Positions 9,741 through 43,371 of a DNA stretch of 64,000 bases are shown piece after piece. Origin of the DNA: Kiritimatiellia bacterium (GTDB lineage Bacteria; Verrucomicrobiota; Kiritimatiellia; RFP12; UBA1067); assembly GCA_045636065.1 (NCBI GenBank), contig JAZTWW010000043.1:3085-67084 (forward strand), in the 5' to 3' direction. The position numbers were made by a program, and so were the translations under genes. Under the pieces are notes generated by a model, which made no database searches, was not told the origin of the DNA, and saw only the letters and a program-made list of their open reading frames with translations. Numbering within the stretch: position 1 is the stretch's first letter; every line of letters begins with the position of its first letter.

Positions 9741-9770
9741 GTAACCTTTCGCCGCATGGCGTGTAAACAG
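9741..9770 (+). promoter_or_regulatory. Island 30-bp motif copy (putative ECF-sigma promoter or cassette boundary)
   Basis: GTAACCTTTCGCCGCATGGCGTGTAAACAG, followed by an AAAGGAG RBS and ATG 9803. Confidence 0.65.
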
Positions 9771-9802
9771 AGCAGAAACAATTTCAACAAAGGAGAAAAA
9801 CC

Positions 9803-10858
9803 ATGGCAATACAATTCAACCTGAATGCGCTGAGCAGGTTCTCGAACGTCAATTTCGGCGACAACGACGCCATTGCCAATCTTGACGGAAAAGACGGCCT
9901 AAAGCAGAACGAAAAGCTCGGGTTCATCCTCACGAGGAAATTCCGCAGCGCCGACGCCGAGAAGCAGAACAACGCCGTGCGCACAGAGCTCCTGAAGGCG
10001 CTCGCGAATGCCTTCGGAATCAAAGACGGCATCGCCGTGGCCAACGGCAAGACGACCTTCACCGACAAGTTCATGAGCCGGCTCGAGGAGATTCTCGGGC
10101 CCGAATTCAAGCGCGGCGACTTCGGCATCAAGGATGGCGTGGTCGATTCGGGCAAGCCGCTCACCCAGCGCCGCATCCAGGCCATCGTCAAGGCGGCCAG
10201 GGCGAAGGGCGATGCAGCGGCCTACGACGGAACGACGTACCTGGCGAAGGTTGACTACATCAAGGGCTGGACCAAAGACAAAAGGGGCCTGGATGCCGCC
10301 ACCAAGAGGGCCGCGCTCGACTTCTTCGACGTCAAGATCCGCAATACGATTGACTTCCTAGACAATGAGTTCAAGGAACTCAGCTACGCCAAGGTGGGCC
10401 GTAACAATGGTGATTTCCAAAAGTACATCAATGAAAAGACCGGACTGGACGTCGACGTCGATAAGATACTCTCTGACCTGCATGCGAAAAACGCCATAAA
10501 AGACGCTTCACTGGATAATGATTGCATCGTCAACATCGACGACATCGACGACATCGCGGACAAGACGTTTGAGCCAGTCAAGCAAAAGATCGGGGAGCTT
10601 CTGAAGACTCTGGTCAAGCAGTCTGTCGATCTCTTTATCCATACGATGGAATCGAAACATGGTGAAATGTACAAGTCCGTGACAGGCATTGTCTCCACAG
10701 AAGGCGAGAGCGTGGAGGTAACCCTGAGCAGGTTGGACAACCTATCCGGGACGATAAGCCGGGTCGACCAGTACTGGCAGCACAAGCAGAACCAACCCGC
10801 CCAGGAAGATGAGGGCGACGTCTTTGAAGAAAACCACGAGGAGTACCTGGTCGAGTAG
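9803..10858 (+). CDS. Candidate type III effector with the MAIQF N-terminal module and a unique C-terminus
   Basis: Good RBS. The N-terminal ~130 aa (NNAVRTELLKAL...GKPLTQRRI) are shared with 27877 and 10919. No signal peptide. Lies in the chaperone-rich island. Confidence 0.6.
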   Translation: MAIQFNLNALSRFSNVNFGDNDAIANLDGKDGLKQNEKLGFILTRKFRSADAEKQNNAVRTELLKALANAFGIKDGIAVANGKTTFTDKFMSRLEEILGPEFKRGDFGIKDGVVDSGKPLTQRRIQAIVKAARAKGDAAAYDGTTYLAKVDYIKGWTKDKRGLDAATKRAALDFFDVKIRNTIDFLDNEFKELSYAKVGRNNGDFQKYINEKTGLDVDVDKILSDLHAKNAIKDASLDNDCIVNIDDIDDIADKTFEPVKQKIGELLKTLVKQSVDLFIHTMESKHGEMYKSVTGIVSTEGESVEVTLSRLDNLSGTISRVDQYWQHKQNQPAQEDEGDVFEENHEEYLVE

Positions 10859-10884
10859 CCTTCCGCCACTTGGCGTGCAGGCAG
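10855..10884 (+). promoter_or_regulatory. Island 30-bp motif copy overlapping the upstream stop (TAG 10856-10858)
   Basis: GTAGCCTTCCGCCACTTGGCGTGCAGGCAG, followed by an AGGAGG RBS and ATG 10919. Confidence 0.55.
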
Positions 10885-10918
10885 GGCGAAACTTCTAAAG
10901 CCAAAAGGAGGCGGAACC

Positions 10919-11248
10919 ATGGCAATACAATTCGATCCGAATGCGCTGAACAGGTTCGCGGACGTCAATTTCAGGGAGACCGACGCGATCGCCAACCTGG
11001 ACGGAAAGGACGGCCTCAAGAAGAACGGCACCCGCGGCTGGGGCGTCTTTTCGGGATGGCGCTCGGGCGACACGAAGCGGAGCAACAACGCCGTGCGCAC
11101 CGAGCTCCTGAAGGCGCTTGGGCGGGCCTTCCATCTCGAAGGCGTCGGCGAGCTGTCCGGCAAGGCGACGTTCTCCGAGGCATTCATGAACAGGCTGGCG
11201 GAGATCATCGGCCCCGAATTCAAGCGCGATGACTTCTGCACGCAGTGA
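10919..11248 (+). pseudogene. Truncated MAIQF-module effector (109 aa)
   Basis: Collinear with the 9803 protein to GPEFKRDDF, then stops before the GKPLT motif. Confidence 0.65.
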
Positions 11249-11285
11249 TTCCAGCAAACCATTTCGGGCAACAGGAGGTAAGACC

Positions 11286-42569: not shown

Positions 42570-42690
42570 GGCGAGTTGCTGCGCGTTGGCGGCGGAGGCA
42601 AACTTTGCGTGCAAATATGCACACAAAATGGTATAATATGCCACGAAAAATCGAGTTGATGCAATTTTGGCACAAAGGAGAAACAAATAA

Positions 42691-43134
42691 ATGGACTTTC
42701 CTGAGCTTATCTCGGACTTCGCCGAGAGACACGGCATAGCGAATCTGACCGCCGAGGACGGAGCCGCCGCGCTTGACGTCGACGGTATCGTCGTCACGCT
42801 CGTCGCCGCAGGCGACGCGCTCTCCGTCTCCGCCGACATCGGCGAGCCGCCGCTCGAGGGCAGGGCCGAGTTCGCAGAGCTCATGCTCGAGGCGAACCTG
42901 CAGTCTGAGGCCTTATTCGCCAAGGAGCCGGAAGCCGGCACCTATATCCTCGTGCGCCGGCTTTCGCTTCCGGCGCTCGATGCAGGATCATTCGATGCCG
43001 CGCTTGAGGCGCTCGTCAATCTGGCGGAGACCTGGCACCGGCTCCTCGCCGATTACCGCCCCGTCGCGAAGGCTGCCGCCGAGCGAGCCGGGGAACATCC
43101 CCAGTTCGGCGACAGGGGATTCGTGCAGGTGTAG
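42691..43134 (+). CDS. CesT-like type III secretion chaperone, close paralog of 34227-34670
   Basis: 147 aa, ungapped alignment to 34227 with about 28 differences by hand count (~80% identity). TGGTATAAT at 42629-42637. Confidence 0.8.
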   Translation: MDFPELISDFAERHGIANLTAEDGAAALDVDGIVVTLVAAGDALSVSADIGEPPLEGRAEFAELMLEANLQSEALFAKEPEAGTYILVRRLSLPALDAGSFDAALEALVNLAETWHRLLADYRPVAKAAAERAGEHPQFGDRGFVQV

Positions 43135-43144
43135 TGCGTCTGAT

Positions 43145-43168
43145 GCCTTGGCCGCATGCGGCCAAGGC
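43145..43168. repeat. Perfect 24-bp palindrome (hairpin or terminator candidate) abutting a motif copy
   Basis: GCCTTGGCCGCATGCGGCCAAGGC equals its own reverse complement. Confidence 0.8.
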
Positions 43169-43198
43169 GTAACCTCCCTTTGCGAGGCGTGTATGCGC
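43169..43198 (+). promoter_or_regulatory. Island 30-bp motif copy with a variant spacer
   Basis: GTAACCTCCCTTTGCGAGGCGTGTATGCGC; the GTAACC to GTGTA spacing is unchanged. Confidence 0.6.
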
Positions 43199-43345
43199 AA
43201 GGACCTCGCCGGCATGCTCGAGGGCGACTACAAGCTCGAATACATTGACATCGACGTGTCGTACGATTTCCATATCGACAAACTCTACAAGTTCAACGCG
43301 ATGCCTGGCGCGCAGCTGGAGGAAATGGATCTTCAGGCCCCGTAA
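43193..43345 (+). pseudogene. Probable C-terminal remnant (50 aa) between two motif copies
   Basis: MRKDLAGMLEGDYKLEYIDIDVSYDFHIDKLYKFNAMPGAQLEEMDLQAP*. The ATG lies inside one motif, there is no RBS, and the stop lies inside the next motif. Confidence 0.5.
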
Positions 43346-43371
43346 CCTTTTGCCGCGCGCCGTGTAGACAG
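43342..43371 (+). promoter_or_regulatory. Island 30-bp motif copy overlapping the upstream stop (TAA 43343-43345)
   Basis: GTAACCTTTTGCCGCGCGCCGTGTAGACAG, upstream of ATG 43413. Confidence 0.65.

Follow-up and report, generated by a model that had tools for sequence, protein, structure and literature searches.

A two-block box ahead of effector-like genes in a Kiritimatiellia genome is most likely the promoter of a type III secretion-linked sigma factor

A 30-bp element recurs between positions 9741 and 43371 of a 64,000-nucleotide stretch of contig JAZTWW010000043.1 from a Kiritimatiellia bacterium (assembly GCA_045636065.1), which we call the window, and in most cases it stands a short distance before an effector-like gene. 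Judged from its sequence and setting, this box is most likely the promoter of a dedicated sigma factor encoded in the same genome's type III secretion system (T3SS) cluster. Taking the parts together, we consider it probable that the box is the promoter of a T3SS-linked sigma factor of the extracytoplasmic function (ECF) type (group 4), that it marks a class of T3SS substrates and that a small protein encoded beside the sigma gene would be a secreted anti-sigma factor. The motif with its anatomy and orientation was observed, as were gene content, synteny and co-occurrence across genomes; that the box acts as a promoter, which sigma factor reads it, and that the small protein is an exported anti-sigma factor are inferred.

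The 30-mer consensus, with up to three mismatches allowed, matched the window 5 times and 100 shuffles 0 times, and the pattern GTAAC-N15-GTGTA matched 7 times against a shuffle mean of 0.01. A position profile built from copies in the genome and iterated, which supplies all bit scores given here, found 11 sites in the window at 24.7–43.7 bits, all on the + strand; the next-best site on either strand scored 5.7 bits. The initial annotation had listed twelve copies, all on the + strand and with GTAAC and GTGTA at a 20-bp offset. Eleven of these were recovered by the profile, on the strand claimed, but the copy at 34678 proved to be a half-site of less than 5 bits, and two degenerate copies proposed near 27750 and 32573 also fell below 5 bits. 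All full copies are in register, although the literal ends are present in only 7 of the 12; substituted ends in the same register read GTAGC..GTGCA, GCATC..GTTTA, ATAAC and GCAAC..GTGCA. Other parts of that description held. Nine of the 11 copies lie 20–48 nt upstream of a ribosome-binding site and start codon (20–50 bp had been stated for most of them), the copies at 33145 and 43169 keep both ends with a changed spacer, and the absence of copies noted for 43803–61596 extends, in the profile scan, to the whole of 43803–64000.

Scanning the 2.02-Mb genome with the profile returned 28 box sites at 23.5–45.5 bits, with the interval from 14 to 23.5 bits left empty. Two blocks are conserved in these sites, T-GTAACCTTT at positions 0–9 and (G)CGTGTAnAC at positions 19–28, and the bases between them vary; with the second block taken as CGTGTAnAC, the spacer is 11 bases long. 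Conservation is 82–100% at positions 1–8 and 20–25, against 50–68% at spacer positions 12–18, which drop to 32–49% in 53 sites of relatives. Within the putative −35 block, the AAC core is nearly invariant (A3 96%, A4 93%, C5 100%), and the bases T22-G23-T24-A25, 16 nt after AAC, are 93–100% conserved. Two relatives carry GCGTATAC and GGCGTAAAC at the place of the −10; both read CGTA there, which fixes the −10 core as (T/C)GTA at AAC-N16. With the −10 register so inferred, AAC-N16-(T/C)GTA is the classical ECF geometry and comes within one base of that of the hrp box described below. The triplet at box positions 2–4 (TAA, TAG or TGA) is the stop codon of an upstream open reading frame (ORF) of more than 100 codons in 10 of the 28 sites, so that the box often abuts the preceding gene.

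All 28 sites face the gene downstream, and in 24 of them the next ORF, of 60 codons or more, starts 20–60 nt further on, an outcome largely as the initial annotation had predicted for a genome scan. The targets are orphan effector-like genes, an SseC-family translocator gene (PF04888, 1.2e-16) with two of its neighbours, a CesT chaperone gene and other T3SS-linked genes. On contig C47 the only box sites are 19158, 28373, 29808, 30934 and 81173, which head the genes for a kinase-like protein (1480 aa), a coiled-coil protein (271 aa), the SseC-like translocator and two further proteins, of 593 and 91 aa. Among ten further downstream proteins elsewhere in the genome, nine have no Pfam domain and the tenth is an SBF-family transporter. 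The initial annotation had expected a genome scan to find the box before other effectors and before apparatus operons; the former was borne out, but the profile scan found no box before sctC, D, F, L, N, R, V or W. Because the box precedes translocator, effector-like and some chaperone genes but not apparatus genes, it appears to define a T3SS substrate class.

The genome has a single FHIPEP gene and one non-flagellar T3SS cluster, on contig C47, outside the window. The cluster encodes SctC (TIGR02516, 4.9e-106), SctU (TIGR01404, 3.3e-113), SctV, SctN, SctR, SctL, SctD, the needle protein, an HrpJ/TyeA gatekeeper and the SseC-family translocator. One primary and four small ECF-like sigma factors are encoded in the genome. 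One of the four is T3SS-linked: a 181-aa protein (C47 80638–81183) whose gene starts 72 nt after sctU, with Sigma70_r2 and r4_2 domains and with a generic ECF model (TIGR02937, 2.5e-20) as the sole NCBIfam model over its cut-off. Among solved structures, those closest to it are R. sphaeroides RpoE, M. tuberculosis SigE and SigL, and B. subtilis SigW. At C47:81173 a box runs over the final four codons of the sigma gene, and the 91-aa ORF begins 26 nt further on. An ECF sigma gene had been expected behind a box; such a gene does lie in the T3SS cluster, but the box is at its 3′ end and would drive the next gene. In one relative, G382, a box stands about 130 nt before the sigma gene. A search of a plasmid collection with the C47 sigma factor gave 13 weak, generic ECF matches, none annotated as HrpL; nine were at no more than 41% identity over the whole aligned part and four at 40–49% over one third of the query. 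We also noted a 3684-aa ORF in the middle of the cluster (C47 37469–48523) and a block of about 15 kb (C47 63962–78638), with an HsdM-like gene first, that parts sctR and its neighbours from radC–sctU–sigma.

We examined the co-occurrence of box, sigma gene and T3SS in 61 relatives, the source genome included, with the box pattern GTAACCTT-N10-13-CGTGTA. SctC exceeded its cut-off in 12 genomes, all 12 of which have the sigma orthologue (E ≤ 1.6e-45); one more genome has the sigma gene only. Eleven of the 13 sigma genomes carry the box, at 1–11 sites each, and the other 48 genomes yield two single matches; the reversed pattern, as a control, gave 6 single matches in the 61 relatives. Weak matches to sigma paralogues (E 1e-6 to 1e-10) are present in many box-free relatives. 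At the level of the phylum, in an even sample of 401 genomes, full-length SctC was found in 19, the sigma factor in 19 of these 19 and the exact box in 11 of them (41 sites), set against 4 single sites among the remaining 382 genomes and 10 single matches of the reversed pattern. Nine genomes have at least two box sites, and all nine have both the sigma gene and SctC. The T3SS is patchily distributed, and box and sigma gene follow it. We collected 56 box sites from 16 relatives, among them members of another taxonomic class. Every site precedes a start codon, as a script showed for 52 and inspection by eye for 4. Their spacers are mutually unrelated, the N-termini encoded downstream resemble those of the window and some of the genes encode CesT-like chaperones.

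The sigma gene was confirmed at 337 places in a one-genome-per-species collection, and the following counts refer to the best 80 of these 337 loci. Nearly all 80 are from metagenome-assembled genomes of rumen, omasum, abomasum, gut or faeces that bear the labels Kiritimatiellae, Lentisphaerae/Victivallales or Verrucomicrobia. sctU lies upstream of the sigma gene in 69 loci, and 66 loci have, downstream of it, a gene for a relative of the small protein. By profile, 33 of the 80 loci have a box where the sigma gene ends (3′), and the core pattern, applied to 39 of the 47 loci without a profile match, found one in 31, so that box and sigma gene are joined in 64 of the 72 loci examined. All 40 profile matches in these loci are co-directional with the sigma gene. 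The usual 3′ end of the gene, CGT GTA ACC TTT TAG, means that the −35 block would encode the last residues of the sigma factor and that the −10 would lie just past its stop codon. The ECF-type promoter of the form AAC-N16-TGTA proposed by the initial annotation thus gains support from the genome scan, the T3SS-linked ECF sigma gene, the phylum-wide co-occurrence and the CGTA of the two relatives.

The small protein encoded beside the sigma gene has 10 orthologues of 84–101 aa (91 aa in this genome), with an M-x-I-N-x-N N-terminus, a variable middle and a conserved tail, PESALxRDDxLGxLVxxAFNLPxPPMPxF, in which a C-terminal helix is followed by a PPMP motif. The N-terminus is effector-like (MEINFNRN...). 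No Pfam, NCBIfam or PDB entry matched the protein (PDB at E ≤ 1), and none of the 10 members matched the FlgM Pfam family at E ≤ 1. We predicted the complex of sigma factor and small protein from both alignments and obtained an ipSAE, the model's own confidence in the interface, of 0.81 (runs 0.80, 0.83 and 0.81), compared with 0.00 for the best of 3 controls; this is a mark that 58 of 80 solved complexes reached, as did 2 of 110 mismatched pairs. The small protein had a predicted local distance difference test (pLDDT) score of 57–59, and at least 83% of contacts were common to the runs. In the predicted contacts, residues 60–89 of the small protein lie on sigma residues 3–40 (region 2) and 113–181 (region 4). 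The model supports a conserved tail held between sigma regions 2 and 4, in the way that anti-sigma factors hold ECF sigma factors, and it makes the small protein a candidate secreted anti-sigma factor.

A scheme that joins these elements would run as follows. The −35 would be GTAACC(TTT) and the −10 (C)GTGTA, with the core (T/C)GTA 16 nt after AAC; transcripts would begin close to where the 30-mer ends and have leaders of about 20–60 nt. The sigma factor would be made together with the export apparatus and would recognise copies of the box ahead of genes for translocators, effectors and some chaperones, as well as before the gene of the small protein, which would bind the sigma factor and then leave by secretion. 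Removal of an anti-sigma factor by secretion would tie the transcription of effectors to an active injectisome, in the manner of BtrA with BtrS and of FlgM with sigma-28. We put forward more tentatively, and with somewhat less than even confidence, a wider proposal: that a self-contained switch for substrate genes travels with one T3SS lineage in herbivore-gut Kiritimatiellia and Lentisphaeria, in which the sigma gene is the last gene of the export-apparatus operon and a new family of about 90 aa, its promoter embedded in the stop region of the sigma gene, holds the sigma factor until exported through the finished injectisome. This would be an FlgM-like checkpoint that evolved independently for an ECF sigma factor. 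On this proposal the box would give access to the whole set of effectors, nearly all of them orphans, in hundreds of uncultured species, which probably inject eukaryotes of the rumen.

Other explanations of the box have to be weighed against a promoter read by the T3SS-linked sigma factor. The box might be the operator of a dedicated activator of the ExsA or InvF type, placed over a weak housekeeping-type promoter with −35 GTAACC, a 17-bp spacer and −10 TAnACA. The bases T24-A25-n-A27-C28-A29 do resemble TATAAT at 3–4 of 6 positions, 17 nt after GTAACC; however, the invariant AAC and G21-T22-G23 are not sigma-70 determinants, and the housekeeping promoters of this genome show TGGTATAAT. A Pfam scan of 21 T3SS-cluster proteins, which are part of the cluster, found no activator-type DNA-binding domain besides the sigma factor, and the box tracks an ECF sigma factor across the phylum, so we regard an activator operator as unlikely. 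A marginally lower probability goes to reading by one of the other ECF-like sigma factors, encoded at C37:31801, C52:24160 and C52:7759. All four small sigma factors are ECF-like, as this would require, but only the T3SS-linked one co-occurs with the box, and it is this gene to which the box is joined in the sigma loci.

The box could also act in the RNA, as a small GC hairpin, placed in the 5′ leader or where the upstream message ends, with a role in stability, translation or secretion targeting. A GC palindrome, CGCCGCGCGGCG, is indeed present, mostly in the window copies, which are paralogous and several of which also share leader and N-terminal coding sequence. Pairing at four or more of the five palindrome positions is seen in 8 of the 11 window copies but falls to 7 of the 17 genome sites outside the window and to 9 of 53 sites of relatives, and the sites that begin exactly at the stop codon of an upstream gene (10 of the 28) would suit a message end. 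Against this stand the absence of a T-run after the palindrome and of any Rfam match in window positions 9000–44000 at E ≤ 1. Since the flanks are conserved and the stem is not, the box is better described as two elements at a fixed distance than as a hairpin; we rejected a hairpin or terminator on the low pairing counts outside the window and the Rfam result, and we consider a cis-acting RNA element highly improbable. Least probable of all, to the point that we hardly credit it, is that the likeness of the copies is a mere trace of recently duplicated effector gene heads with no regulatory role. The copies at 9741, 10855 and 27806 share leader and N-terminal coding sequence and those at 17595 and 37519 share their leader, as duplication would predict, but the comparative data contradict this reading: spacers, leaders and genes change around two blocks that do not, both in the 28 genome sites and in the 56 sites from 16 other genomes of two taxonomic classes.

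Several observations weigh against a promoter read by the T3SS-linked sigma factor and against the circuit drawn from it. Two relatives, G029 and G044, have the sigma gene and the T3SS without the exact box, as do 8 of the 19 SctC genomes of the phylum sample, and because the sampled genomes are kin, the co-occurrence counts overstate significance. The distance from AAC to CGT is only 14 nt, compared with the usual 16–17, so the fit requires the −10 to be read as YGTA, and the 3′ block is also readable as a weak sigma-70-type TAnACA 17 nt after GTAACC. At the 3′ end of the sigma gene the −35 block is coding, and its conservation there is perhaps partly a protein constraint. Many ECF sigma factors are auto-regulated, and no profile match of at least 14 bits precedes sctU–sigma in this genome. 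One of the lower-scoring sites, C36 144266, precedes a gene for an SBF-family bile-acid/sodium symporter, and the 1550-aa protein behind the box at 37813, another of the lower-scoring sites, has a signal-peptide-like N-terminus; neither protein resembles a T3SS substrate. The small protein matches no anti-sigma family, and the score of its predicted complex, being the model's own confidence, may have been helped by solved ECF/anti-sigma complexes. The available RNA data are assembled metatranscriptome contigs without molecule ends, in which no transcription start is seen and which are neutral on the start site.

Among the closest known systems is HrpL (ECF32) of Pseudomonas syringae, Erwinia and Dickeya, a T3SS-dedicated ECF sigma factor with a −35 of GgAACc, nearly identical to GTAACC here, and a spacing of about 16–17 nt. 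The hrp box, GgAACc-N16-17-CCAN, stands before effector genes and is usable for effector finding (PMC4149516); HrpL is reported not to be auto-regulated (bioRxiv 10.1101/2019.12.11.873521). The two systems differ in the −10, which is CCAC in the hrp box and (C)GTGTA with core YGTA here, in that the box here does not precede apparatus operons and in that the sigma gene here follows sctU; unlike that of HrpL, its surroundings show no two-component or sigma-54 activator context. The C47 sigma factor reached no NCBIfam equivalog cut-off, and its hosts differ from those of HrpL in phylum (Verrucomicrobiota in the GTDB sense, Kiritimatiellia and Lentisphaeria) and in habitat, the herbivore gut.

In Bordetella, the ECF sigma factor BtrS is antagonised by the T3SS-exported protein BtrA (BspR) (PMC10732220). 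The likeness lies in an ECF sigma gene within a T3SS locus and, by analogy, in a putatively exported antagonist, although the small protein here is half the size of BtrA or less, matches no family and is predicted from modelling to bind the sigma factor. The Bordetella btr locus includes a partner-switching phosphatase of the PP2C type; its proteins include BtrU, BtrV and BtrW. Its counterpart here would be a 559-aa SpoIIE-family PP2C phosphatase encoded inside the T3SS cluster together with a periplasmic SBP_bac_3 protein (C47 33874–36245), a pair that is a possible signal input and recalls the btr partner-switching module. Three other SpoIIE genes lie on contigs C22, C33 and C57, with HATPase_c_2 and STAS matches on the same contigs; the STAS and HATPase_c_2 genes of this genome are on contigs other than C47, and in one relative a STAS protein follows the small gene.

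FlgM has about 90 aa, is probably disordered and holds sigma-28 (FliA) with its C-terminus; its gene is adjacent to that of sigma-28, and FlgM is exported by the type III gate. The small protein is FlgM-like in its size, its probable disorder, its conserved C-terminus, which would hold a sigma factor, and the position of its gene beside the sigma gene, and we propose by analogy that it would be released through the type III export gate, so setting late genes apart from early ones. The pair differs from FlgM and sigma-28 in that sigma-28 belongs to group 3 and the sigma factor here is ECF (group 4), and the FlgM Pfam family is unmatched, as noted above. The promoters of SigW in Bacillus subtilis read TGAAAC-N16-CGTA. 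They share the AAC-N16-(C/T)GTA geometry with the box, and the C47 sigma factor matches the SigW structure at 5.4e-11; the regulon of SigW is another one, and its anti-sigma factor is the membrane protein RsiW. We read the arrangement described here, by analogy, as an HrpL/BtrS-like circuit in rumen Kiritimatiellia and Lentisphaeria.

Our literature search found no paper on ECF-promoter control of type III secretion in Verrucomicrobia, and none of the papers it found that join Kiritimatiellae and type III secretion (PMC9816063 included) is about T3SS regulation by its title and the opening of its abstract. The main text of the ECF classification paper makes no mention of Verrucomicrobia, Kiritimatiellaeota or Lentisphaerae. 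ECF-controlled T3SS regulons are known from a few Proteobacteria (HrpL, BtrS); the present case is from uncultured bacteria in the Planctomycetes–Verrucomicrobia–Chlamydiae (PVC) group that are common in ruminant guts. What is new is the conserved module of sctU, sigma gene and small-protein gene, the last encoding a candidate anti-sigma factor of a new family. If the box is the promoter of a dedicated T3SS sigma factor, it can be used to list the secreted proteins of the bacterium, as a sequence-only handle on proteins nearly all of which are without known domain. Sigma factor, anti-sigma factor and promoter would form a compact triple that is testable in E. coli, and a lead on the tie between effector expression and secretion in a lineage without genetics.

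The full copies in the window, all on the + strand, begin with a box of 43.7 bits at 9741–9770, 32 nt before the ATG of an orphan gene for 351 aa (9803–10858) with no Pfam family over cut-off. The TAG of the next copy (10855–10884, 30.3 bits) is the stop codon of that gene, and the copy lies 34 nt before a 109-aa gene at 10919–11248, which is followed by a 2036-aa gene with a Shine–Dalgarno sequence and ATG at 11286 that runs to 17396. We considered a frameshift joining 10919–11248 to a 2055-aa ORF and rejected it, since a ribosome-binding site and ATG at 11286 serve the large gene by itself. Further copies are found at 17595–17624 (37.5 bits), 45 nt before a 457-aa gene (17670–19043); at 27806–27835 (43.4 bits), 41 nt before a 543-aa gene (27877–29508); and at 29537–29566 (30.9 bits, with the weakened 5′ block GCATCC), 33 nt before a 921-aa gene (29600–32365). 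The copy at 33145–33174 (32.4 bits, different spacer) ends a chaperone gene with its TAA and lies 22 nt before gene 33197–34114. An orphan copy of 40.3 bits at 37519–37548 has the conserved leader with no start codon behind it, and a weak one of 26.1 bits at 37813–37842 lies 48 nt before the 1550-aa gene 37891–42543. That gene ends in the TAA of the copy at 42540–42569 (41.8 bits), 121 nt before a CesT chaperone gene. A weak copy of 24.7 bits with a different spacer at 43169–43198 precedes a 43-codon ORF (43214–43345), and the last copy (43342–43371, 42.7 bits) lies 41 nt before a 123-aa gene (43413–43784), the last gene of the island. The half-site at 34678–34707 (+) keeps the 3′ block (CGCCGCGCGGCGTGTAGAC) and has TCATGCC where GTAACC is expected; it lies just after the chaperone gene 34227–34670 and before a gene that starts at 34747 and runs to 37449. 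The site at 27750 is its homologue, and both follow CesT chaperone genes.

Four CesT-family T3SS chaperone genes (PF05932) lie in the island, at 27283–27741 on the + strand (3.5e-24), 32636–33148 with a probable start at 32715 (7.1e-06), 34227–34670 (5e-16) and 42691–43134 (3.9e-15). Pfam domains are all but absent from the island's large ORFs; the exception is an ABC1 kinase-like stretch in a 2692-aa protein. Beyond the island, the box-free part of the window (43803–64000) is housekeeping DNA with genes for an alanine symporter, PyrD, YchF, FabG, FabF, QueA, FeoB and FolD. The genes at 9803–10100, 10919–11248 and 27877–28180 have box, leader and N-terminal coding sequence (MAIQF(N/D)(L/P)NAL(S/N)RF...) in common and then diverge. 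One of them is a stand-alone 109-aa head, and the set looks like a promoter and secretion-signal module shuffled onto different bodies. More generally, the N-terminus M-x-I-N/Q-x-N is common among box-driven proteins.

Another type of element in the window is an extended −10 of the housekeeping type. TGGTATAAT stands at 19128–19136 (+), before the box-less 2692-aa gene 19170–27248, and elements of this type precede three of the four CesT chaperone genes (32662, 34183, which reads TGATATAAT, and 42629, all +). Others are at 37492, 37735 and 43734 (+) and at 9497, 50677, 52575 and 57717 (−), and the type also stands before housekeeping genes; the elements at 37492 and 37735 are just upstream of box copies. 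Chaperones and effectors thus seem, from these upstream sequences, to be on different promoter classes, the chaperone gene 42691–43134 having both the box at 42540 and TGGTATAAT at 42629 upstream. Assembled contigs from four rumen metatranscriptome runs cover much of 9600–29599 at 95–99% identity, which indicates that related strains are present in the RNA libraries. Some of these contigs join box leaders (9777, 9787 and 17630) to 19110–19122, with sides of 30–37 nt that are too short to trust; related strains may carry a box-type promoter before the 19170 gene, or the joins may be assembly jumps between repeats.

On contig C17, a box at 634 (−) heads an effector-like gene, a homologue of window gene 33197–34114, that has an in-frame TAG after 27 codons with the frame open thereafter, and so may be a pseudogene or contain a sequencing error. 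Giant effector-like proteins with an ABC1/aminoglycoside-phosphotransferase-like kinase stretch are encoded at 19170–27248 in the window and at C47 19222–23664 (PF03109, 1.6e-12 and 9.6e-09). The window giant is without a box; that on C47 has one, as does a giant at C40 11020–15396, which is grouped with the C47 protein by its similar N-terminus alone.

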